A stretch of 64,000 bases of DNA from an uncultured Pirellulales bacterium (GTDB lineage: Bacteria > Planctomycetota > Phycisphaerae > Sedimentisphaerales > SM23-30). Each line of letters begins with the position of its first letter. Positions within the stretch are counted from its first letter, which is position 1. Below the pieces are notes generated by a model. It searched no databases. It was not told the DNA's origin and saw only the letters and a program-made list of their open reading frames with translations. The stretch is from NCBI GenBank assembly GCA_964482555.1, contig CAYZXY010000001.1:78591-142590 (forward strand), given 5' to 3'. Both the position numbers and the translations under genes were made by a program. Shown here piece after piece: positions 1,639 through 62,458 of the stretch.

Positions 1639-1745
1639 AGTACGCGTTCCGATTGAATTATTCCGTTTTTGACGGTACGTAATTATGTGCGGATAAAACA
1701 TTTACGCCTGACCCTCCCGGTAGACTTCTACCCGATGGGGTATAA
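1639..1745 (+). repeat. Family-1 structured interspersed repeat (MITE/REP-like), copy 1
   Basis: cagTACGCGTTCCGATTGAATTATTCCGTTTTTGACGGTACGTAATTATGTGCGGATAAAACATTTACGCC...CTACCCGATGGGGTATAA. Aligns end to end with the other copies and lies 12 nt from the tRNA-Thr 3' end. Confidence 0.85.
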
Positions 1746-3383: not shown

Positions 3384-3493
3384 TATATAGACTCGTTCCA
3401 TTTGAAATCACCCGTTTATCCCAAACGTAACTATTTCCGATTAAAACCTTTACGACTAGCCCTGGCGGAAATTCTCATACCCTTTGGGTATAT
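3384..3493 (+). repeat. Family-1 interspersed repeat, copy 2 (subfamily B)
   Basis: TTATATAGACTCGTTCCATTTGAAATCACCCGTTTATCCCAAACG...CTTTACGACTAGCCCTGGCGGAAATTCTCATACCCTTTGGGTATA. Confidence 0.85.
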
Positions 3494-4421: not shown

Positions 4422-4580
4422 TGATCGTTTATCTTTCAGGATATCTCACATGCTGCATCTTCCCGAAACAGCATAATATATACTACAAACACCAATATTA
4501 ATATATGAATTTTTTATGGTATATAACTAAGTAATTCACGAACAATATTTATTTTATACAGACAAATCCATAAAATTTTC

Positions 4581-4609
4581 TTGAATATCATACATAAACT
4601 GTGTATATA
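4581..4609 (+). promoter_or_regulatory. candidate sigma70-type promoter in AT-rich spacer
   Basis: TTGAAT - 17 nt - TATATA(AT) in a very AT-rich 250-bp stretch. The nearest downstream + strand gene is the response regulator at 5016, and the transcript would cross Family-1 copy 3. Confidence 0.3.
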
Positions 4610-4681
4610 ATGTAAAGGTAATTTTATTTCAATTAACAAATTATAGTCTTGTTACAGTTTGCGGATTTTCGGCAGTTTGAA

Positions 4682-4791
4682 TTACCTAACCAATCAGGTA
4701 GAAAGCTCCGGGCAGGACCGGGCACAAGCTTTTTTCCGCAATCAATTATGATCCGATAAAACGGGACATTTCAATCGGAATGAGTATATAA
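4682..4791 (-). repeat. Family-1 interspersed repeat, copy 3
   Basis: Plus strand reads TTACCTAACCAATCAGGTAGAAAGCTCCGGGCAGGACCGGGCACAAGCTT...CGGGACATTTCAATCGGAATGAGTATATAA, which is the reverse complement of the family consensus. Confidence 0.85.
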
Positions 4792-5015: not shown

Positions 5016-5669
5016 ATGAACATTCGAATCATACTGGCAGACGATCATCAGGTCATACGGGAAGGTTTGCGCAGTTTAATAGAAAAGCAGCCAGACATGG
5101 AAGTGATCGCTGAAGCCGGCGACGGCCGGGAAGCCGTCCAATTGGCTCAGAAGCTCAAGCCTAATCTGGTAATTATGGATGTATCCATGCCGAATCTGAA
5201 TGGAATCGACGCTACCCGGCAAATCACGACACAATGTCCCGGCGTGAAAGTTCTGGCCCTCTCGATCCATCCCAGTAAACAGTTTATTTCGTACATGCTC
5301 AAAGCGGGCGCTTCGGGCTATCTTCTGAAGAATTGCGCATTTGATGAACTTACCCAGGCGATCAATGTTGTCGCGTCGGATCACACCTACCTGAGCCCCG
5401 GCATAACTGACGTGGTGGTAGATGATTACATCAATCAATTGCCCGAAAAAGGCGCGGAGATCTGCCCCGAGCTCTCCAGCCGGGAACGAGAAGTGCTGCA
5501 ACTTATCGCGGAAGGCAAATCCACCAAAGAGATAGCGCTGCACCTTCATGTCAGCGCCAAAACCGTTGCCACCCACCGGGAACATATTATGAGTAAATTG
5601 AATATTCATAATGTGGTAGAACTGGCAAAATACGCGGTCAGAGAAGGGCTGACCTCTTTCGAAATATAG
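5016..5669 (+). CDS. NarL/FixJ-family response regulator (REC + LuxR-type HTH)
   Basis: IRIILADDH...DLVIMDVSMPNLNGID receiver motifs. C-terminal LSSREREVLQLIAEGKSTKEIALHLHVSAKTVATHREHIMSKL LuxR HTH. No adjacent histidine kinase. Confidence 0.92.
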   Translation: MNIRIILADDHQVIREGLRSLIEKQPDMEVIAEAGDGREAVQLAQKLKPNLVIMDVSMPNLNGIDATRQITTQCPGVKVLALSIHPSKQFISYMLKAGASGYLLKNCAFDELTQAINVVASDHTYLSPGITDVVVDDYINQLPEKGAEICPELSSREREVLQLIAEGKSTKEIALHLHVSAKTVATHREHIMSKLNIHNVVELAKYAVREGLTSFEI

Positions 5670-5708
5670 CCACACACTTAAAATAGCTATTTCTTGTTGC
5701 GGAAACCA

Positions 5709-5793
5709 GTACCGCTGGCATCCTGCCTGCATTCAACCATACTTAAACGTTTAAAAACGGAAAATGTTGTATTATGAGATACGTCAAAAAATG
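5709..5793 (+). repeat. Family-3 element (hairpin + conserved tail), uninterrupted copy
   Basis: GTACCGCTGGCATCCTGCCTGCATT-CAACCATACTTAAACGTTTAAAAA-CGGAAAATGTTGTATTATGAGATACGTCAAAAAATG. Recurs at 18788..18975, where it is split by a Family-1 copy. Confidence 0.7.
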
Positions 5794-6037
5794 TAACCGC
5801 AACAGAAACCGGCTATCAGATTATTAAAATTACCGCCCCGTTTCAGCATTTTTCTTACACCAAATCAGGTTTTTTACTTATTTAATCGGGATCATAACCC
5901 CGTATATAATATAGAAGTAGCTCATATTTAACGCAAAGAATCGCTTCACGTAAAAGCCTGGCGTGGTGGTCTGAGCCCCACAATCCCCGACCGACAGATC
6001 GCTGCGCCAGGAGTTTTCCGGTATGATCCTGTTTACT

Positions 6038-7747: not shown

Positions 7748-7856
7748 TTAATACTCGTTCCAAATTGAAACTCCCGTTGTGTCAGAACGGAATTATGGGC
7801 GGACAAAACACTTACGGATAGCCTCTGGCGGGAGCTTTCATACCCTTTGAGTATAA
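7748..7856 (+). repeat. Family-1 interspersed repeat, copy 4
   Basis: TTAATACTCGTTCCAAATTGAAACTCCCGTTGTGTCAGAACGGAATTATGGGCGGACAAAACACTTACGGATAGCCTCTGGCGGGAGCTTTCATACCCTTTGAGTATAA. Confidence 0.85.
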
Positions 7857-9783: not shown

Positions 9784-9950
9784 GGGGTGCTCATTATAAG
9801 AGAGCCCTTATAGATTATTTATCAGAATTGGCTTCGCCTGCGCTTCGCTGCGGCTCAGACCAGCCTTAATGCAGGCAGTATGCCTGCGATACAATAGCAT
9901 ACTTAAGATCATCTTCGCTGCGTTCGGGATTCGCCTATGCATGGCACCCC
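9784..9950. repeat. ~167-bp element bounded by short inverted termini GGGGTGC...GCACCCC, single copy in window
   Basis: Termini GGGGTGC / GCACCCC. Internal direct repeats CTTCGCTGCG (x2) and TTCGCCT(G/A) flank a central hairpin GCAGGCA-gta-TGCCTGC (9871..9887). The size and first bases resemble Family-2, but the similarity is weak. Confidence 0.3.
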
Positions 9951-11569: not shown

Positions 11570-11694
11570 TATGTGCCCAAAGGGTATGAGGATGGCCGCC
11601 AGAGATAAACGTAAGTATATTATTTTCACATATTTACTGTTTTTCAGATGGACGGCGTCATTGGTTTCAAGTATTAAACCGAACGGAGTATAAA
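11570..11694 (-). repeat. Family-1 interspersed repeat, copy 5 (divergent, longer)
   Basis: Plus strand TGTGCCCAAAGGGTATGAGGATGGCCGCCAGAGATAAACGTAAG ... CCGAACGGAGTATAAA. Both termini match the family, the middle has diverged. Confidence 0.6.
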
Positions 11695-16639: not shown

Positions 16640-18604
16640 ATGACAGGAAAACTTCTGAAAATGATCGATTCGCCTGCGGATTTACGTCTGCTGACGATAC
16701 CGCAGTTATTGGAACTGGCCGATGAAATTCGCCAGCTTATCAAAATCTCGGTGAGCCGTAATGGAGGACATCTGGCCAGTAATCTGGGCGTCGTCGAGCT
16801 GACCATCGCCCTGAATTACGTGTTCGATTTCTCATACGACCGGGTCGTCTGGGACGTCGGGCATCAGTGCTACATCCAGAAAATACTTACCGGCCGGAAG
16901 CAGGGCTTCGAGCAGCTACGACAGGCCGGGGGCGTCAGCGGTTTTCCCGATCCGCAGGAGAGCATGTATGACCAGTTTAAGGTTGGACATGCCGGTACGG
17001 CGGTCGCGACGGCGGTCGGACTGGCGATGGGCGCCCAGATGCAGGGAACTGACGAAAAAGTCGTCGCGGTCGTCGGCGACGCCAGCATCGTCAACGGCAT
17101 CTCCTTCGAAGGGCTCAACAACACCGACAAGGTCAAACGACAGCTCCTGATCATCATGAACGACAACTCTATGGCGATCGACAAGACCCAGGGCGCCTTT
17201 GCCCAATATCTCACACGCGTGCGGGTCTCGCGAACCTACGAAGACATCCAGCGACACACACGCCAACTGGTCAAACAACTGCCGGTACTCGGCGGCGCCC
17301 TGCACGATACCATCGACCGCATCAAAGGCGGCATCAAATCGACCCTGCTCAACCAGGGTAAATTCGCCCAGCTCGGCATTCCGTTCTACGGCCCTGTGGA
17401 CGGACACGACCTGGCCAATATGATTACGCTCCTGCGAAACATCAAAGAAGTCGATCACCCGATGATTCTGCATGTCTATACCGAAAAGGGACGCGGTTTC
17501 AACCCCGCCAGCCAGAATCCCACGGCTTTCCACAGCACCAAACCGTTTATCGTGGACGGCGAGACAGTCAGCTTCGCCGAAAGCAGCGACCTGAGCTTTA
17601 CCGCTGCCTTCGCCCACGCCCTGGAAGATGTCATGGCGAAAGATGAGCGCGTCGTCGCGATTACCGCCGCCATGCAGGACGGCACGGGCCTCTCCAAACT
17701 GCGCAATGAATTCCCCAACCGCATCATCGACGTCGGCATCGCCGAAAGCGCCGCTATAGATATCGCCGCCGGCATGGCCAAAACCGGCCTGCGACCCGTC
17801 GTCGCCATTTATTCCACCTTTATGCAGCGGTGTTTCGACCAGATTTTCCAGGAAATGGCCCTGCAGAATCTGCCGGTCGTGCTCTGCATGGATCGGGCAG
17901 GCCTGGTGGGAAATGACGGCGCAACCCATCACGGCTTATGCGATATCGCTATGCTCCGACCGCTGCCGAACATGATACTGATGTCGCCCATGGACGACAA
18001 GGAAATGGCTTTGGCCCTGGATTTCGCCATTCATTCCGAGCAGCCCTGTGCCATCCGCTTTCCGCGCGATGTCGTGCCGCAACTGGATAAACTTTTCCTG
18101 AACTATAAACCGGCTCCCTTCGAACCCGGCAAAGCGGCCACCATCCGCCATGGGAGCGATGTATCGATCATGGCCTACGGCCCGATAACTTTCGATGCCT
18201 ATCTGGCCGCGGAAAGCCTCGCCGCCGACGGCATCGAAGCCGGCGTTATCAGCGGCAGATTCGCCAAACCAGTCGATGAAAATCTGCTGGTCGAATTGCT
18301 GGACAACCGTTTCGATACGCCTCTGATAGTGGTTGATGAGCATTCCGTCATAGGTGGTTTCGGCTCGGCTATTCTGGAAACCGCCCAGCTGCTGCGACTG
18401 GATACCAACCGTATTCATTGCCTCGGCACCCCTGACAGATTCATCGAGCACGACACTCGCAAAAAACAGCTCGAAAAATGCGGCCTGACCCCTCAGCAGA
18501 TTGCCGATTACATCCGGCGGGTTCTCAACCAGAGCGGCAAACGAAAGATAGACGGCAAGTGGCGACTGCCGGTCGAAGCCAAAAAAGACACGCAAAAACA
18601 ATAG
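16640..18604 (+). CDS. dxs: 1-deoxy-D-xylulose-5-phosphate synthase
   Basis: GGHLASNLGVVELTIAL...VWDVGHQCY...GHAGTAVATAVG...VVGDASIVNGISFEGLN (TPP-binding) ...DVGIAESAAIDIAAGMA...GNDGATHHG. SD GAGAGGA upstream. Confidence 0.96.
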   Translation: MTGKLLKMIDSPADLRLLTIPQLLELADEIRQLIKISVSRNGGHLASNLGVVELTIALNYVFDFSYDRVVWDVGHQCYIQKILTGRKQGFEQLRQAGGVSGFPDPQESMYDQFKVGHAGTAVATAVGLAMGAQMQGTDEKVVAVVGDASIVNGISFEGLNNTDKVKRQLLIIMNDNSMAIDKTQGAFAQYLTRVRVSRTYEDIQRHTRQLVKQLPVLGGALHDTIDRIKGGIKSTLLNQGKFAQLGIPFYGPVDGHDLANMITLLRNIKEVDHPMILHVYTEKGRGFNPASQNPTAFHSTKPFIVDGETVSFAESSDLSFTAAFAHALEDVMAKDERVVAITAAMQDGTGLSKLRNEFPNRIIDVGIAESAAIDIAAGMAKTGLRPVVAIYSTFMQRCFDQIFQEMALQNLPVVLCMDRAGLVGNDGATHHGLCDIAMLRPLPNMILMSPMDDKEMALALDFAIHSEQPCAIRFPRDVVPQLDKLFLNYKPAPFEPGKAATIRHGSDVSIMAYGPITFDAYLAAESLAADGIEAGVISGRFAKPVDENLLVELLDNRFDTPLIVVDEHSVIGGFGSAILETAQLLRLDTNRIHCLGTPDRFIEHDTRKKQLEKCGLTPQQIADYIRRVLNQSGKRKIDGKWRLPVEAKKDTQKQ

Positions 18605-18763
18605 GGTGCCTCTAATAATTGCTTTTGAGGCGAAAGCGAAGATTTTTTTCGTCTGACAAGAAATGCAAAACCGGGCATATGGGTGACTATTCACGGTTTT
18701 TCATGACGAAGGCCAGAGGGAAAAATGATCGCTTGCAGCCCAAAATGAATTTTTAGTGGTGCC
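18605..18763 (+). mobile_element. Family-2 MITE-like element, copy A (16-bp imperfect TIRs, 6-bp flanking direct repeat)
   Basis: GGTGCCTCTAATAATT...AATTTTTAGTGGTGCC. About 95% identical to 27068..27226. Flanked on both sides by CAATAG (18599..18604 and 18764..18769). The left CAATAG contains the dxs stop codon. Confidence 0.75.
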
Positions 18764-18787
18764 CAATAGTTATTATCGCGGAATCAT

Positions 18788-18975
18788 GTACCGCAGGCAT
18801 CCTGCCTGCATTTATACTCGTTCCAATTTAATATTACCGTTTTGCCCAAACGCAACTATTTTCGGGCAAAGCCTTTACGATTGGCCCTGGCGGGGATTCT
18901 CATACCCTTTGGGTTTAACCACGCTCAAACATCTGAAAGCGGAAAATGTTGAATTATGAGATACGTCAAAAAATG
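18788..18975 (+). repeat. Family-3 element interrupted by a Family-1 copy (nested insertion)
   Basis: GTACCGCAGGCATCCTGCCTGCATT | Family-1 copy | AACCACGCTCAAACATCTGAAAGCGGAAAATGTTGAATTATGAGATACGTCAAAAAATG. Colinear with 5709..5793 apart from the insert. Confidence 0.75.
18813..18917 (+). repeat. Family-1 interspersed repeat, copy 6 (subfamily B), nested in Family-3
   Basis: TATACTCGTTCCAATTTAATATTACCGTTTTGCCCAAACGCAACTATTTTCGGGCAAAGCCTTTACGATTGGCCCTGGCGGGGATTCTCATACCCTTTGGGTTTA. Confidence 0.85.
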
Positions 18976-18994
18976 CCGCAGCAGCAGATCCTGG

Positions 18995-19050
18995 TTATCC
19001 ACACAGAACAATCATTGTAATGGCCTTCTGAAAAAACACTTACAATGATT
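18995..19050. promoter_or_regulatory. perfect DnaA-box 9-mer plus 11-bp perfect inverted repeat upstream of the peroxiredoxin gene
   Basis: TTATCCACA at 18995..19003. AATCATTGTAA (19010..19020) and TTACAATGATT (19040..19050) are exact reverse complements separated by 19 nt. Confidence 0.3.
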
Positions 19051-19232
19051 TCATGTCCATTTTCAACAATTCCAGTATTTTAATCTCCTTTCTTTTTCTC
19101 TTATAAATCTTCCTGACTCCAAAATTTTTTTCTAACTTTTGTGACCTTTTTAGATTCTTCCGCCTACAATAAATCAGTAGTTTATTTAATTGGAGAACTA
19201 AATATTATATTGTTAATGAGGTATGAACAGTT

Positions 19233-19871
19233 ATGAGTGAACAAGAATGCTGCGTATACAATAAGATAAAAGTCGGCCAACAGGCTCCCGGATTCTGCGG
19301 CCAGGCCGTTGTTGGCCAGGAAATTGTTGATTTGTGCTACGATAAGGGCGAATTGAAAATCGGAGACCAGAAGATTACCGGTCAGTATATTGTCCTGTTT
19401 TTTTATCCGCTTGATTTCACCTTCGTTTGCCCGACGGAAATTCTGGCATTTCATGAAAAAATCGACGAGTTCAAAAAAATCGGCGCCCAGGTCATCGGTG
19501 CTTCCATCGACAGCCCTTTTACCCACATGGCTTGGAAAAACACCCCGCGCAACAAGGGCGGGCTGGGCGAGCTGGATTTCCCGCTGTTTTCCGACCTGAA
19601 CCGCCAATGCGCTGACGATTATGAAGTCCTGCTCGAAAACGGCGTTGCCGCCCGCGGTGTTTTCATTATCGACGAAAACGGCATCCTGCAAAGCCTCACC
19701 GTCAACAACCTCGGCGTCGGTCGCAATGTCGATGAGATCATCCGCGTTATCCAGGCTTTCCAGTTCGTCGCCAAACACGGCGAAGTCTGCCCGGCCAACT
19801 GGACCCCCGGCGGAGATACCATGAAAGCGGATCCCGTCGGTTCGCAGGAATATTTCAGCAAAGTGAAATGA
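19233..19871 (+). CDS. typical 2-Cys peroxiredoxin (AhpC/Prx1 subfamily)
   Basis: FFYPLDFTFVCPTEI (peroxidatic Cys) and HGEVCPANW (resolving Cys). SD TGAGGT upstream. Confidence 0.92.
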   Translation: MSEQECCVYNKIKVGQQAPGFCGQAVVGQEIVDLCYDKGELKIGDQKITGQYIVLFFYPLDFTFVCPTEILAFHEKIDEFKKIGAQVIGASIDSPFTHMAWKNTPRNKGGLGELDFPLFSDLNRQCADDYEVLLENGVAARGVFIIDENGILQSLTVNNLGVGRNVDEIIRVIQAFQFVAKHGEVCPANWTPGGDTMKADPVGSQEYFSKVK

Positions 19872-21651: not shown

Positions 21652-21760
21652 TTTATACCCCATTGGGGAGAAAGCTCCCGGCAGGGCCGGGCGTAAGCTT
21701 TTTATTCGCAGATAATTACGTTCCGACAAAACGGATATTTTCTATCGGAACGAGTATTAA
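21652..21760 (-). repeat. Family-1 interspersed repeat, copy 7
   Basis: Plus strand TTTATACCCCATTGGGGAGAAAGCTCCCGGCAGGGCCGGGCGTAAGCTTTTTATTCGCAGATAATTACGTTCCGACAAAACGGATATTTTCTATCGGAACGAGTATTAA. Starts 11 nt upstream of the ruvB start codon. Confidence 0.88.
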
Positions 21761-21807: not shown

Positions 21808-22041
21808 TTATTCCTCCATCTCCCCTTTCTCTTTCGAAACGCCCCCTTCCAGCCATTCCTCATAACGCGCCCGTGTCCGCTTGATCCGTTTGGGCATAAA
21901 ATCCTTATGGATCTTATTCTCGTACAAATCCACCTGAAACGACAGGTTTTTCTCCATAATCTCCCGTAACGCATCCACACCCTCCGACATCGCTAAAACC
22001 GCTGCCTTCAGTTCCTTCATCTCTTGATTATTCTGCTCCAT
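21808..22041 (-). CDS. hypothetical 77-aa charged/helical protein
   Basis: MEQNNQEMKELKAAVLAMSEGVDALREIMEKNL... SD GGGAGA 8 nt upstream of the ATG. No recognisable family. Confidence 0.35.
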   Translation of the reverse strand: MEQNNQEMKELKAAVLAMSEGVDALREIMEKNLSFQVDLYENKIHKDFMPKRIKRTRARYEEWLEGGVSKEKGEMEE

Positions 22042-22230: not shown

Positions 22231-22308
22231 ATATACTCGTTTCGATTGAATTTACCCGTTTTGTCGGAACCTAATCATGTACGGAGCTTTCCACCCGATT
22301 GGGTATAG
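22231..22308 (+). repeat. Family-1 interspersed repeat, copy 8 (about 30-nt internal deletion)
   Basis: ATATACTCGTTTCGATTGAATTTACCCGTTTTGTCGGAACCTAATCATGTACGGAGCTTTCCACCCGATTGGGTATA. Lies 34 nt beyond the znuC stop. Confidence 0.8.
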
Positions 22309-24764: not shown

Positions 24765-24869
24765 TTATACGCGTTTCGATTGAAATTGCCCGTTTTATCA
24801 GAACGTAATTTTTGCGGATAATACACTTACGCCCGACCTTGCCAAAAATTTCTACCCAACAGGGTATAA
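24765..24869 (+). repeat. Family-1 interspersed repeat, copy 9
   Basis: TTATACGCGTTTCGATTGAAATTGCCCGTTTTATCAGAACGTAATTTTTGCGGATAATACACTTACGCCCGACCTTGCCAAAAATTTCTACCCAACAGGGTATAAA. Lies between the dnaA stop and the zur promoter. Confidence 0.85.
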
Positions 24870-24949: not shown

Positions 24950-26311
24950 TTAACGCATATGATTGCGGCTTTCATGCTGCGTCAGGCCAGTCACCAGGGA
25001 ATCGACCATGCCGCGAATGGATTCATCGTGGTCGCAAAGCTTGTCGATATTGCGGTAGGCGTGCAGGACGGTGGTATGATCACGCCCGCCGAAATAGCCG
25101 CCGATTTCTTCGAGGCTGTGGTTGGTCAGATCGCGGGCCAGATACATGCAGATCTGGCGGGGCAGAGCGATGCTGCGGCTGCGGCGTTTGCCCTGCAGAT
25201 CGCTGAGCCGGACGTTGAAATGATCCGTGACGGCTTCGATAATCTGGCTGATGGAGACCTGCCGATGGGCGGGTGTGGGCTCTTCGCCCAGGGCCTGCCG
25301 GGCCAGTTCCAAGTTGATAGTGCCGTTATCCAGCATGGCCAGCCCATGTACCTTGGTCAGAGCGCCTTCGAGTTCCCGGGTGTTGCTTTCGATTTTTCGG
25401 GCGATGAAGTTGATCACTTCTTCCGGAGGGTGCAGACCGCGCAAGGACGCTTTTTTATATAAAATCGCCATCCGCATTTCAAAACTGGGTTTATCGATGC
25501 GGGTGACCAGCCCCTGATTGAAGCGACTGACCAGACGGTCTTCGAGTTTCGGCATTTCCGCCGGCGAGCAATCAGCGGAAAGGATTATCTGCTTACGGGA
25601 TTGATAAAGGCTGTTGAAAGTGTGGAAAAATTCCTCCTGCGACCGCTCCCGGTCGGAGAGAAACTGAACATCGTCAATGACCAGCACATCCACATGCCGG
25701 TATTTATGTCGAAAATCGTACAGTTTCCCCTCTTCCACGGCCCGAATGAAATCGTTCACGAACGTTTCGCAGGTCATATACATTACCCGCGCGTTGCTGT
25801 TGGATTTAAGAAACGCCTGGCAGGTGGCCTGCATCAGGTGGGTTTTACCAAGCCCGACTGAACCATGCAGAAACAAGGGATTGTAGGTCGTACCAGGCGA
25901 TTCGCTGACTGCCAGACATGCCGCGTGCGAAAGCCGGTTGCAGGGGCCGACCACAAAATTGGAAAAGGTGTAATCCGGATTGAAAAAGATTAGATCGTTA
26001 TCGTCATCCTGGTAATCTTCATCATCTGTTGACGAATACATCATATCCGATTGTTCGGAGTAAAAGAATTCCAGGCTGATCAAATGGCCGGTAATACACT
26101 GGGCGGCCTCTTTGAATTCATTATAACAGTTATGTTTGAGGTACTGCTGCCAGGAGCGCTCGGGGACACCGATTCGAAGCAGCCCGTTGTCCAGGCCGAT
26201 CGGTTCCAGCTGCTCAAACCAGCTGCGCCAGTGAGGGCAGTTATTGATTTGTAAATGGCGTAAAATCCTATCCCAGATGTCAGTTAATACGTCTGCCACG
26301 AAAATCTCCAT
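24950..26311 (-). CDS. dnaA: chromosomal replication initiator protein DnaA
   Basis: NPLFLHGSVGLGKTHLMQA (Walker A), VLVIDDVQFL (Walker B), box VII/sensor RELEGAL. C-terminal DNA-binding domain IALPRQICMYLARDLTNHSLEEIGGYFGGRDHTTVLHAYRNI. Confidence 0.97.
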   Translation of the reverse strand: MEIFVADVLTDIWDRILRHLQINNCPHWRSWFEQLEPIGLDNGLLRIGVPERSWQQYLKHNCYNEFKEAAQCITGHLISLEFFYSEQSDMMYSSTDDEDYQDDDNDLIFFNPDYTFSNFVVGPCNRLSHAACLAVSESPGTTYNPLFLHGSVGLGKTHLMQATCQAFLKSNSNARVMYMTCETFVNDFIRAVEEGKLYDFRHKYRHVDVLVIDDVQFLSDRERSQEEFFHTFNSLYQSRKQIILSADCSPAEMPKLEDRLVSRFNQGLVTRIDKPSFEMRMAILYKKASLRGLHPPEEVINFIARKIESNTRELEGALTKVHGLAMLDNGTINLELARQALGEEPTPAHRQVSISQIIEAVTDHFNVRLSDLQGKRRSRSIALPRQICMYLARDLTNHSLEEIGGYFGGRDHTTVLHAYRNIDKLCDHDESIRGMVDSLVTGLTQHESRNHMR

Positions 26312-26802
26312 GTTGGACTCAGAAAATTCTGGTAACCAATTGCAAATACTAAAATGAAGCGAAGTTAACGAACGAACCGGCAGACCCGGATACCATTACG
26401 TATGACCAATTTTCCTATCCAGCTTGTATCAACCGTAATAAAAAAGGATGTGCTATGATATTGAAATGCCGCAATATGTGCAGTCACGTAGTTCATATAA
26501 ATTCAAAACCTTTGTCCGCGCAAAACACTTGTGATGCATGATTATCCCCCTCCCTGGGGCAGGTAAGGCTATTGAGGTACGCGTCCATGCGTGAATATCA
26601 CTCAAAGCTCAATACATAACGGAAATTACTGAAAAACGAGCGAATGGCTCATTTGTGCCGCATAAATCCGCTGAAACTCTTTTCCTGGCAAAATGGCTTT
26701 GCATCCGATTTCGCCTTTGAAGTTTATAGATTCGAAGTGGATCTGTCAAACGAAAATACCTTATCAATTTTTAATTGCTCCAGTAGCTTATAAATAACTT
26801 TT

Positions 26803-26908
26803 CTATATTTGTTCCGATTGTAATTGTCCGTTTTACCAGGCCGTTATTTTGTGCAGATAATACACTAAAGCTCGGCCCTGACAGAAACTTTTTACACGAG
26901 GGGTAAAC
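26803..26908 (+). repeat. Family-1 interspersed repeat, copy 10 (divergent)
   Basis: CTATATTTGTTCCGATTGTAATTGTCCGTTTTACCAGGCCGTTATTTTGTGCAGATAATACACTAAAGCTCGGCCCTGACAGAAACTTTTTACACGAGGGGTAAAC. Confidence 0.7.
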
Positions 26909-27067
26909 AATGACCATTTAGCAGCGTTTATGATTTTTTCATAATCAATGTATCAGTGCGATTTCGCTCTTTTTTTGTGGTATCTTTAACGGATGAGGCT
27001 TTACAGAGCCTTTTGACCAGCAACTCAAGATGTTTTGGAGTATTCGATCACTTATTCGAGAGTTAAG

Positions 27068-27226
27068 GGTGCCTCTAATAATTGCTTTTGAGGCGAAAGC
27101 GAAGATTTTTTTCGTCTAACAAGAAATGGAAAACCGGGCATATTGGTATATATTCACGGTTTTTCATGACGAAGGCCAGAAGGAAAAAAGATCGCTTGCA
27201 GCCCAAAATGAATTTTTAGAGGTACC
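27068..27226 (+). mobile_element. Family-2 MITE-like element, copy B
   Basis: GGTGCCTCTAATAATTGCTTTTGAGGCGAAAGCGAAG...CCCAAAATGAATTTTTAGAGGTACC. TIR GGTGCCTCTAATAATT vs reverse complement GGTACCTCTAAAAATT. Flanks TTAAG / TTAAA. Confidence 0.75.
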
Positions 27227-27804
27227 TTAAATAATATCATCGGGCTTTAAAGGCCCGGCGGAACGCTAAAGCGTTATCAAAAAATGCAAAAGTTAAGTAT
27301 CATTTGGAACACGGCAAAAACTTCAACCTTTCCGAAAATCTGTCATGCCTGGAAATGGTTAGGCTTTCTGGCCAGACATGTTAGCGAGAGGGTGTTACAT
27401 AATTGCGGTCCGGGCCTCCTGCTCGCGCAAGTCATTGCGACATGGGCATTTTGCCCATGCAATGAGCGGTTACATCGACCTCCTGCTCATGGTGTGTATA
27501 TCAAAACTGAAAATGGCAATGCCATTAAGAATGAGCCAACCAGAATGATCAATCAATAACGAGTGAATATTTGTCACATTCCTGAAGGCAATTTGCCATT
27601 GCGGAAAACATATCCCGAACATGAATATTGTCAGACTTTCGATACCATATATTGTATGTATATCATTTGAACATTGCTTATTATGTGTGAGTGAAACACC
27701 AGAACGTTCACATAAAATGCGAAAGTTAACTGGGCATACATGCAAAAAAATTGTTCAAAGCCGCTCTGATACTCAAACATCAGGTCCAACCGCTGTATCA
27801 AAAA

Positions 27805-27911
27805 TATACACGGTCGGGCAGAAGGCTCCGGGCAGGGCCAGGCGTAAGCTTTTTATCCGCAGACAATTACGTTCCGACAAAATGGGGATTTCAATCGAAA
27901 CGAGGTATACA
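27805..27911 (-). repeat. Family-1 interspersed repeat, copy 11
   Basis: Plus strand TATACACGGTCGGGCAGAAGGCTCCGGGCAGGGCCAGGCGTAAGCTTTTTATCCGCAGACAATTACGTTCCGACAAAATGGGGATTTCAATCGAAACGAGGTATACA. Forms an inverted pair with copy 12. Confidence 0.85.
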
Positions 27912-27977
27912 TAACAAAAAATATCTCATTTTTTTATGCCTGCCAGGCATCAGCATTCGTGTCGCATAAAATAAGAA

Positions 27978-28006
27978 TTGACTTGGAAGCCCGCAATTCG
28001 TATTAT
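27978..28006 (+). promoter_or_regulatory. candidate sigma70-type promoter between the inverted Family-1 pair
   Basis: TTGACT - 17 nt - TATTAT. Confidence 0.35.
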
Positions 28007-28156
28007 GAACGGTTTATCCGAGGCTGTCGTAACATGATCAGTCGCTGGTAATCGTAAAAATAATGTATGTGATTATTCACAGACAAAGCCCTTCACGTAA
28101 AGTGAGGAGGTGGTTTATGCTGAAATTGTGATTTCCCCGTTTTTGCAGCGGGGCTT

Positions 28157-28263
28157 TTATACTCGTTCCGATTGAAAATACCCGTTTTGTCGGAACGTAA
28201 TTGTCTGCGGATAAAAAGCTTACGCTTGGCCTTGCCCGGAGCTTTTTACCCAATTGGGCATAA
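28157..28263 (+). repeat. Family-1 interspersed repeat, copy 12 (close to consensus)
   Basis: TTATACTCGTTCCGATTGAAAATACCCGTTTTGTCGGAACGTAATTGTCTGCGGATAAAAAGCTTACGCTTGGCCTTGCCCGGAGCTTTTTACCCAATTGGGCATAAA. Confidence 0.9.
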
Positions 28264-28329
28264 AACACAATTGAACGAAATTCTGTGAATAGTAACCAAT
28301 AAATCTATTTGACTTGAACGAGGAAGCCG

Positions 28330-29088
28330 TTGGCGTCATACGCAATAATATCCGATATTCATTCCAATCTTTCGGCATTATCGGCAGTGCTGGATGATAT
28401 TACCGCACGAGGGGTCGAAGAAGTATTCTGTTTGGGCGATATCGTCGGCTATGGTCCCCAGCCCCGTGAATGTCTGGACCTGATCATCGAACGCAAGATC
28501 ATCAGTATTATGGGGAATCATGACCACGCCGTCTTTTATGAACCGACCAATTTCAACACCGGTGCCGAGCGGGCCAGCTACTGGACCCGCCGGATTCTCG
28601 AAGAAGAGCCGGACCGCGAAAAACGAAATCAGCGATGGTCGTTCCTGGGCCGTCTGCCGTTGCGGATTCAGATGGGCAACGTCCTCTTGGTCCATGGCTC
28701 GCCGCGCCGTCCGGTAAATGAATATATTTTTCCTGATGATATTTATACGAATAACACCAAGCTTCTGGCGATTTTTGAAAAAGTCGATCATATTTGTTTT
28801 GTAGGGCATACCCATGTACCGGGCGTTTTCCTGGAAGACCCGGATTTTTACGGTATCGATGAGCTTGACTATCATTACCCGATTATCGATTCGGAAAAGG
28901 CGATTATTAATGTCGGCAGTGTGGGCCAGCCGCGGGACCAGGATACCCGGGCCAGCTATGTCGTCGTCAGCGACGACAAGGTCGAGTTCGTTCGCGTGGA
29001 ATATGACGTCGAAAAGACGGCAGATATGATACTCGCCAATCCTCATCTGGATAACTTTGAGGGGGAACGTTTACGTGAAGGACGCTAA
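28330..29088 (+). CDS. metallophosphoesterase (calcineurin-like, YfcE/MJ0936-type)
   Basis: TTG start. ISDIHSN, LGDIVGYGP, GNHD, LVHGSP and GHTH are the five metallophosphatase motifs in order. Confidence 0.87.
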   Translation: MASYAIISDIHSNLSALSAVLDDITARGVEEVFCLGDIVGYGPQPRECLDLIIERKIISIMGNHDHAVFYEPTNFNTGAERASYWTRRILEEEPDREKRNQRWSFLGRLPLRIQMGNVLLVHGSPRRPVNEYIFPDDIYTNNTKLLAIFEKVDHICFVGHTHVPGVFLEDPDFYGIDELDYHYPIIDSEKAIINVGSVGQPRDQDTRASYVVVSDDKVEFVRVEYDVEKTADMILANPHLDNFEGERLREGR

Positions 29089-33860: not shown

Positions 33861-33966
33861 TAATACCCAAAGGGTATGCCCCCCGCCAGGGCCAACCGTT
33901 AGTGTTTTATCCGCAATTAATTAAGTCTGGACAAAACGAGAAAATTTCATCGGAGTGAGTATATAA
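33861..33966 (-). repeat. Family-1 interspersed repeat, copy 13 (subfamily B)
   Basis: Plus strand TAATACCCAAAGGGTATGCCCCCCGCCAGGGCCAACCGTTAGTGTTTTATCCGCAATTAATTAAGTCTGGACAAAACGAGAAAATTTCATCGGAGTGAGTATATAA. Confidence 0.85.
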
Positions 33967-45469: not shown

Positions 45470-45556
45470 CTGGAATGGGTGGCATACTTACCTGATACCT
45501 GAGCGCAGCGACAAAACTTACGCCCTGCCCGGAGCTTTCTATCCAATTGAGTATAA
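45470..45556 (+). repeat. Family-1 repeat, truncated/degenerate copy (good 3' half)
   Basis: ...GCAGCGACAAAACTTACGCCCTGCCCGGAGCTTTCTATCCAATTGAGTATAA. Confidence 0.6.
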
Positions 45557-52901: not shown

Positions 52902-52919
52902 TCTAAAACGGGGTATTTC

Positions 52920-53024
52920 TATACTCGTTTCGATTGAAGAACCCGTTTTGTCCAAACGTAACTCTTTGCGGGCAAAACCTTTACGGCTGGCCCTGGCGGG
53001 AAGTCTCATACCTTTTGGGTATAA
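52920..53024 (+). repeat. Family-1 interspersed repeat, copy 14 (subfamily B), inside the polysaccharide operon
   Basis: TATACTCGTTTCGATTGAAGAACCCGTTTTGTCCAAACGTAACTCTTTGCGGGCAAAACCTTTACGGCTGGCCCTGGCGGGAAGTCTCATACCTTTTGGGTATAA. Begins 19 nt after the wzy-like stop and ends 2 nt before ATG 53027. Confidence 0.88.
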
Positions 53025-55222: not shown

Positions 55223-55239
55223 GCAGGCAATCTGCCTGC
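55223..55239. repeat. REP-like hairpin GCAGGCA-N3-TGCCTGC immediately after the GT9 stop
   Basis: GCAGGCAatcTGCCTGC. The same 7-bp stem occurs at 18793..18809 and 9871..9887, with shorter versions at 5717..5727 and 48415..48427. Confidence 0.6.
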
Positions 55240-55398
55240 ATTATGTTGAAACGATTTATCAAAGATGTTCCCTGGTTAAATAGTATTCCTTTTTCAACTT
55301 AAGTTTCGCATTTTTTGCGAGCGTTTTGACGTTCCGCAGGGTCTTTTCCTGAAATGTTATCACCATAAAAAGTATGAAATCGCACTTCGAGTTACGTT

Positions 55399-62343: not shown

Positions 62344-62458
62344 TTTCTAACCAATGGGGTAGAAATCTCCCGGCAGGTCTGGACGTAAGCTTCTTATCCG
62401 CAGACAATTACGTTCCGAAAATCGGGGATTTTCAATCGGAACGAGTATGCTGCAATTC
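62344..62458 (-). repeat. Family-1 interspersed repeat, copy 15
   Basis: Plus strand TTTCTAACCAATGGGGTAGAAATCTCCCGGCAGGTCTGGACGTAAGCTTCTTATCCGCAGACAATTACGTTCCGAAAATCGGGGATTTTCAATCGGAACGAGTAT. Confidence 0.85.

Follow-up and report, generated by a model that had tools for sequence, protein, structure and literature searches.

The window, the 64-kb stretch of DNA analyzed here, comes from an uncultured Phycisphaerae/Sedimentisphaerales-like planctomycete. It is core chromosome, with dnaA, yidC, ruvB, mreBCD, dxs, a gene for flagellin and a cluster for polysaccharide synthesis. Sequences identical to its dxs protein are confined to an NCBI record and the Logan assemblies of three runs (SRR7048221, SRR7048222, SRR7048224). 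Among named relatives the best are Sedimentisphaerales/Phycisphaerae MAGs, at ~66% identity; the closest protein of all reaches 68%. Downstream of dxs and 258 nt upstream of a peroxiredoxin gene lies a copy of one repeat, Family-3, that is interrupted by a copy of another, Family-1. An uninterrupted copy of Family-3 starts 19 nt past the stop of a NarL/LuxR-type response regulator gene (5016–5669), and each of the two Family-3 copies follows a plus-strand gene. A third repeat also occurs next to dxs (18603–18778, 91% identical over 178 nt to 27066–27242); it begins at the dxs stop codon, with a terminator-like hairpin and T-run at 18619–18639, and its second copy lies in a gene-free stretch adjoining dnaA.

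The initial annotation had described Family-3 as an 85-nt element split at 18788–18975 by a complete Family-1 copy, and its coordinates and quoted strings for the 5709 and 18788 loci are all exact on re-reading of the sequence. When the window is compared with itself, both Family-3 arms of the interrupted (filled) site match the uninterrupted (empty) site, colinearly and on the same strand: the left arm (18767–18812 vs 5688–5733) at 83% identity (E 9e-5) and the right arm (18914–18999 vs 5732–5817) at 79% (E 2e-13). Removing 103 nt (18815–18917) from 18767–18999 leaves a sequence that aligns without gaps to 5688–5817, identical at 104 of 130 positions, and joining the flanks with one TA kept yields a gapless 106-nt blastn match to 5688–5793 (84%, E 1e-25). 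The interrupting segment is full-length Family-1, covering profile positions 2–107 at 18812–18917 (nhmmer, E 8e-31), and the gap between the Family-3 arms coincides exactly with the boundaries of the other 14 Family-1 copies. The nested arrangement is thus confirmed, and a chance match is not possible. The description of Family-3 itself needs amendment: homology extends over ~130 nt (5688–5817) rather than 85 nt, and the repeat is better called a duplicated intergenic module than an element.

Table 1. Coordinates of the filled and empty Family-3 copies and of the Family-1 (F1) copies in the window.
Feature	Coordinates	Strand	Evidence or remark
Family-3 left arm, filled copy	18767..18812	+	83% identical to 5688-5733
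Perfect 7-bp hairpin GCAGGCA-TCC-TGCCTGC in left arm	18793..18809	+	insertion point 3 nt past stem
Left TA, one copy of putative 2-bp target duplication	18813..18814	+	junction reading
F1 core, 101 nt, TACTCGTTCC...CCTTTGGGTT, subfamily B	18815..18915	+	nhmmer E 8e-31
Right TA, second copy of putative duplication	18916..18917	+	junction reading, flank survey
Family-3 right arm, filled copy	18918..18999	+	79% identical to 5736-5817
Family-3 block 2, filled copy	18940..18975	+	35/36 identical to 5758-5793
Uninterrupted (empty) Family-3 copy	5688..5817	+	gapless alignment to rebuilt filled copy
CA at position equivalent to filled copy's TA target	5734..5735	+	gapless alignment
F1 copy	1641..1744	+	nhmmer E 4e-20
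F1 copy, subfamily B	3387..3492	+	nhmmer E 1.9e-29
F1 copy	4690..4789	-	nhmmer E 3e-17
F1 copy, subfamily B	7749..7855	+	nhmmer E 1e-21
Diverged F1 copy, 234-nt mreB-mreC spacer	11574..11692	-	nhmmer E 1.9e-6
F1 copy, 13 nt upstream of ruvB	21654..21759	-	nhmmer E 1.3e-31
F1 copy with internal deletion	22231..22305	+	nhmmer E 6e-11
F1 copy	24765..24868	+	nhmmer E 9e-19
F1 copy	26803..26903	+	nhmmer E 4e-11
F1 copy	27805..27904	-	nhmmer E 9.5e-23
F1 copy, subfamily A, nearest family consensus	28157..28262	+	nhmmer E 3.4e-31
F1 copy, subfamily B	33863..33964	-	nhmmer E 2e-19
F1 solo 3' fragment	45513..45555	+	nhmmer E 4.8e-5, HMM positions 60-107
F1 copy, subfamily B	52919..53023	+	nhmmer E 5e-32
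F1 copy	62348..62448	-	nhmmer E 3e-23

The right junction, from Family-1 through Family-3 and on to the peroxiredoxin gene, is present at 100% identity in Logan contigs of two other runs; both contigs (L003 and L004) begin at 18885 and confirm the sequence from there onward. The left junction (18812/18813) comes from the window assembly alone, and a look-up of ORFs spanning it returned no record. Misassembly is unlikely, since the nested copy shares at most 82% identity with any other Family-1 copy of the window. Logan contigs end at Family-1 repeats. Contigs from three independent runs (L005, L006 and L007) all end inside block 2 of the empty Family-3 copy, at 5787–5791, a region that the other window copy matches only by a 23-nt exact run; these shared end points hint at further copies of Family-3 elsewhere in the genome.

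Family-1 is represented in the 64 kb by 15 copies and one 3' fragment (Table 1), about one per 4 kb and on both strands, as found with an nhmmer profile built from five copies. By the window gene calls these (15–16 copies) are all intergenic, several of them only 13–30 nt from a start or stop codon. One lies between mreB and mreC, genes that normally belong to a single operon. No clear bias in Family-1 orientation is seen across the dnaA region, and GC skew over the 64 kb carries too much noise for a test of replication-strand bias. Pairwise identity among copies ranges from 53 to 88% (mean 69%) and the family divides into two subfamilies, A and B; the nested copy belongs to subfamily B, and its closest kin, at 3387 and 52919, match it at 80–82%. 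The family therefore appears old, and at such identities there is no sign of recent movement. When all copies are anchored on their ends, the core runs from TACTCGTTCC to GGGTA and measures 98–103 nt (~101 nt), except for one copy with an internal deletion, whose core is 72 nt. A longer element reaching beyond the 3' end was considered from a comparison of 4561–4690 with 28263–28382, and was dropped because the similarity is weak and AT-rich. Two pairs of copies stand head to head with their 5' ends inward: 21654–21759(-)/22231–22305(+), which encloses ~470 nt with a possible 77-aa ORF (21808–22041, minus strand), and 27805–27904(-)/28157–28262(+), which encloses ~250 nt.

Beyond the window, Family-1 is absent from the 22-kb locus of the nearest relative (the genome with the 68% identical dxs protein), and degenerate patterns for it gave 0 matches in metagenome and viral collections. 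Distant blastn against plasmids matched neither Family-1 nor Family-3. A Family-3 20-mer searched across genome contigs returned only a chance match, in an archaeal MAG, and an 18-mer searched in the viral collection returned 16 matches, all by chance, with no similarity past the 18-mer. A search of the literature on Sedimentisphaerales repeats and on the SRA run numbers found nothing.

The gapless rebuilt empty site, with a gap that fits the boundaries of Family-1, bears out the initial claim that Family-1 is or was mobile rather than a conserved regulatory site. This evidence is one empty/filled pair (n = 1), of paralogues 80% identical within one genome rather than alleles; rebuilt empty sites for the other 14 copies, searched against the window, found no paralogous counterpart. 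Family-1 is non-coding, with stops in most frames; one partly open frame has no relatives in the database, and its profile has no match at E<=10. As a structured RNA gene it can be set aside, because the consensus folds weakly (-2.45 kcal/mol, one hairpin having modest support), the nested copy has no advantage in folding over shuffled sequence (z = -0.65) and Rfam gives no match: with Rfam 15, only three tRNAs reach gathering score over the window, nothing appears at E<=10 over 5640–5900 and only chance-level matches appear over 18590–19240. The same weak structure and empty Rfam search count against an immobile Family-1, a functional intergenic module (an RNA, for instance, or a protein-binding site) shuffled by recombination, as in BIME-type mosaics. 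That view could draw on the mosaic of three repeat types downstream of dxs (18603–18778, Family-3 and Family-1), on an internal hairpin, TTTTGTC...GATAAAA, that most copies retain, with a few changes that are one-sided or compensatory, and on the frequent placement of copies 13–30 nt from gene ends. We find it scarcely credible, as the unit has identical boundaries in all copies while the surrounding sequence is unrelated, occurs in both orientations relative to neighboring genes, and is flanked by a pattern that resembles a target-site preference. Nor does Family-1 resemble a REP or BIME repeat, being ~101 nt long and not palindromic overall.

The empty junction reads ...CCTGCCTGCATT-CA-ACCATAC (that is, GCATT-CA-ACC), and the filled junction ...CCTGCCTGCATT-TA-[TACTCG...GGGTT]-TA-ACCACGC. 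Filled and empty copies differ in length by exactly 103 nt, the sum of the 101-nt core and one TA in the filled copy. A 105-nt element that includes both TAs and makes no duplication predicts a difference of 105 nt, and is rejected. Two models fit 103 nt: a 101-nt core that duplicated a TA, and a 103-nt element with one terminal TA. The initial annotation had judged a TA target-site duplication compatible with these junctions and had cautioned that the exact boundary is ambiguous; both statements hold, as the length difference also fits insertion beside an existing TA, unduplicated. For this single paralogous pair, a 2-bp TA duplication would be the simplest and most economical reading, and it passes through one substitution, since the empty site reads CA and not TA.

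A survey of the flanks of all copies, proposed in the initial annotation, finds TA before the core in 10 of 15 copies and after it in 10 of 15, with TA on both sides in seven; the background frequency of the dinucleotide is 4.3% (binomial p 5e-11 for 10/15), and deviations from TA on the two sides are mutually independent. Moreover, T occupies position -4 in 13 of 15 copies (p 9e-6), A position -1 in 14 of 15, and A positions +3 and +4 in nine of 15 each (p 0.015), which suggests a roughly palindromic target, T-n-TA-n-A. At the nested copy the bases at -4/-3 and +3 belong to the target and not to the element, because the empty Family-3 copy has them too. The duplication model is favored because of this symmetric flank bias and because duplication is usual for bacterial small mobile repeats, which are described with TA termini, target duplications and contiguous terminal repeats of 4–24 bp (PMC2229807). 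The terminal symmetry of Family-1 is short (TATACYC...GRGTATA, ~5–7 bp; 13 of 20 matches over the first 20 nt); it falls within that range and below the 10–15 bp required by some MITE definitions (PMC11602168).

The 103-nt difference fits equally well if Family-1 moves as single-stranded DNA in the manner of IS200/IS605. The element would then be 103 nt, the core plus its own terminal TA, inserted without duplication 3' of a T-rich ...TA target, and the two TAs would be the target and the right cleavage site of the element. In favor of this model, conservation is stronger in the left flank than in the right (T at -4, A at -1), Family-1 terminates at its 3' end in a hairpin (TACCC-N4-GGGTA or ATACCC-TTT-GGGTAT) and has a looser one, CGTTCCGA...TCGGAACG, close to the 5' end, and both the nested copy and the copy at 28157 lie a few bases past a hairpin. 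The 5' hairpin is, however, poorly conserved in subfamily B, and the bias at +3 and +4 makes the target symmetric, as expected of a staggered double-strand cut. Family-1 also has a short terminal inverted repeat, which IS200/IS605 ends lack, shows no clear orientation bias across the dnaA region, and is accompanied by no TnpA (Y1 transposase) or TnpB gene in the window. On balance we hold single-strand movement to be improbable, and prefer insertion at a staggered cut with duplication of TA. The insertion points, 3 nt past the stem of the Family-3 hairpin at the nested site and 4 nt past a terminator-like hairpin at 28157, may mean that T-rich tails ending in TA are favored targets. The sequence abutting the copy at 28157 (28108–28155) contains GGAGG, a 4-codon ORF (ATG CTG AAA TTG TGA) and a G+C hairpin with a T-run, and looks like a leader peptide or attenuator region.

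The comparison of the two sites gives a difference and not its direction, and by their identities, 80–82% between the nested Family-1 copy and its closest kin and 80% within the Family-3 pair, the two are of similar age. The empty copy at 5688–5817 could thus descend from an interrupted ancestor, if Family-1 predated the Family-3 duplication and was later lost, either excised precisely or deleted between the TAs. We consider such a loss very unlikely: the alignment is gapless, with no footprint or leftover Family-1 bases in the empty copy, elements that duplicate TA normally leave extra bases behind on cut-and-paste excision, and clean deletion on 2-bp microhomology is rare. Even if loss were the case, Family-1 would remain a discrete mobile or excisable unit.

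Family-1 is, with high probability, a MITE-type bacterial DNA transposon, small, non-coding and non-autonomous, that became nested by insertion; it combines small size and lack of coding capacity with many intergenic copies and the filled-versus-empty comparison. In the sequence of events that we propose, the ~130-nt Family-3 module would already have been duplicated, with one copy downstream of dxs and the other downstream of the response regulator gene, when a subfamily-B Family-1 inserted into a TA three bases past the hairpin of the copy near dxs. A staggered cut, once repaired, would have duplicated the TA to give GCATT-TA[101-nt core]TA-ACC, while the paralogue at 5688–5817 would never have been occupied and would retain GCATT-CA-ACC. 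We infer duplication of the TA, as opposed to a TA already present on one side. Mobilization was presumably by a DDE-type transposase encoded elsewhere; the 64-kb window contains no transposase and no full-length partner for Family-1, and the IS630/Tc1-mariner style of the initial annotation is only an analogy; a duplicated TA would be compatible with that family and is not peculiar to it. The family is probably inactive now, and is best described as a lineage-specific MITE-like family that is old and decayed.

RUP, Correia and ERIC are known examples of the bacterial MITE type, and the first two are among the closest parallels to Family-1. RUP, the repeat unit of pneumococcus, is a MITE proposed to be mobilized by IS630-Spn1; it is 107 bp long and inserts at TA (PMC2229807). 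Family-1 (101–105 nt) is likewise non-coding, intergenic and dispersed, with a short terminal inverted repeat, TA termini, TA targets and nesting in other repeats (PMC2229807), although we claim no sequence relationship. The RUP host is a firmicute rather than a planctomycete, its terminal repeats match a known IS630-family element whereas Family-1 has no known partner, and its copies are highly similar and considered recently active, in contrast to the old-looking copies of Family-1 (53–88% identical). Correia/NEMIS elements of Neisseria (~100–150 bp, hundreds of intergenic copies, no known transposase) share with Family-1 a TA target duplication (putative in Family-1), TATA-like ends and positions near gene starts and ends (PMC2229807). 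Their terminal repeats are ~24–26 bp, with IHF and promoter motifs, whereas Family-1 has ~5–7 bp of symmetry and a consensus in which no promoter is recognizable on reading; the sequences are unrelated. IS200/IS605-derived PATEs and REP/RAYT systems resemble Family-1 in the 3'-terminal hairpin and in insertion beside a short conserved left-flank motif (T-n-T-A in Family-1), but Family-1 has biased flanks on both sides and a short terminal inverted repeat, and the window has no Y1 transposase. PATEs are defined by subterminal hairpins at both ends, the lack of a terminal inverted repeat and insertion 3' of a fixed target of 4–5 nt that is not duplicated; in Family-1 the 5' hairpin is weak. The same logic, in which an insertion into one copy of a repeat exposes the boundaries of an element and its duplication, has been applied to eukaryotic and bacterial MITEs, and such comparisons of empty with filled sites are cited for YPAL (PMC2229807); here, the comparison is of one pair only, paralogues in a single genome.

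Family-3, of which the window holds only two full copies, contains two blocks that are far better conserved than the rest of the module (59 of 61 positions identical vs 45 of 69; Fisher p 4e-6). Block 1 (25 nt; 5709–5733 and 18788–18812) reads GTACCGC-GGCATCCTGCCTGCATT and holds the perfect 7-bp hairpin, and block 2 (36 nt; 5758–5793 and 18940–18975) reads CGGAAAATGTTG-ATTATGAGATACGTCAAAAAATG. Their conservation even where Family-1 has put 103 nt between them would point to constraint or gene conversion. The hairpin motif has 10 strand-matches against 0.27 expected, and GCAGGCA-N3-TGCCTGC followed by ATT occurs four times, at 5714–5733, 18793–18812, 9868–9887 (-) and 55223–55242 (+); because it also stands alone at 9868 and 55223, the left block looks like a small REP-like unit. 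Block 1 can be read as GG-N10-GC, which may be a sigma-54-like spacing, and block 2 as GGAAAA-N17-CGTC, which may be an ECF-like one. REP units are G+C-rich palindromes of 20–40 nt that carry a GTAG or CGTC tag and occur in high copy number; the hairpin is REP-like in form, but with only four copies and no such tag (compare PMC3733652) it is not assigned to that class. Family-3 as a MITE with terminal repeats of its own was also considered and finds no support, as the pair TTCTTGTTGCGG/CCGCAACAGAAA seen in copy 1 is not kept in copy 2.

A functional two-part Family-3 module, a REP-like hairpin joined with a 36-nt block that is possibly an alternative-sigma promoter, is a speculative joint reading to which we give a low probability. 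If it were true, the parts would act independently of spacing, and Family-1 would have been tolerated or co-opted in a regulatory region upstream of the peroxiredoxin gene; on the same reading Family-1 would be the first MITE family characterized in Phycisphaerae and, at ~1 copy per 4 kb, would make up 2–3% of the genome.

Beside dnaA (24950–26311, minus strand), a 2-kb gene-free region (26312–28329) extends to a metallophosphoesterase/yidC pair. This region, a candidate replication origin, carries several other repeats besides three Family-1 copies. Two further short inverted repeat pairs, 27249–27298/55297–55346 and 27510–27567/48578–48635 (80–81% identical), connect the region near dnaA with intergenic sites far away.

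The nested copy gives exact boundaries to a repeat family that is undescribed and very abundant in this uncultured planctomycete, together with its likely insertion signature, a 101-nt core at TA. Family-1 belongs to a commonplace class of bacterial mobile elements, here in a lineage that has received little study, and reveals no new mechanism; with it, elements of the RUP/Correia type reach a phylum for which there are hardly any descriptions of them. Its repeats break short-read assemblies of the host and generate spurious ORFs, and they should be masked and annotated, as they lie 13–30 nt from the starts of ruvB, a Fur-family regulator gene and a protease gene. The general interest of the finding is modest, and its use lies in the annotation and assembly of this lineage.
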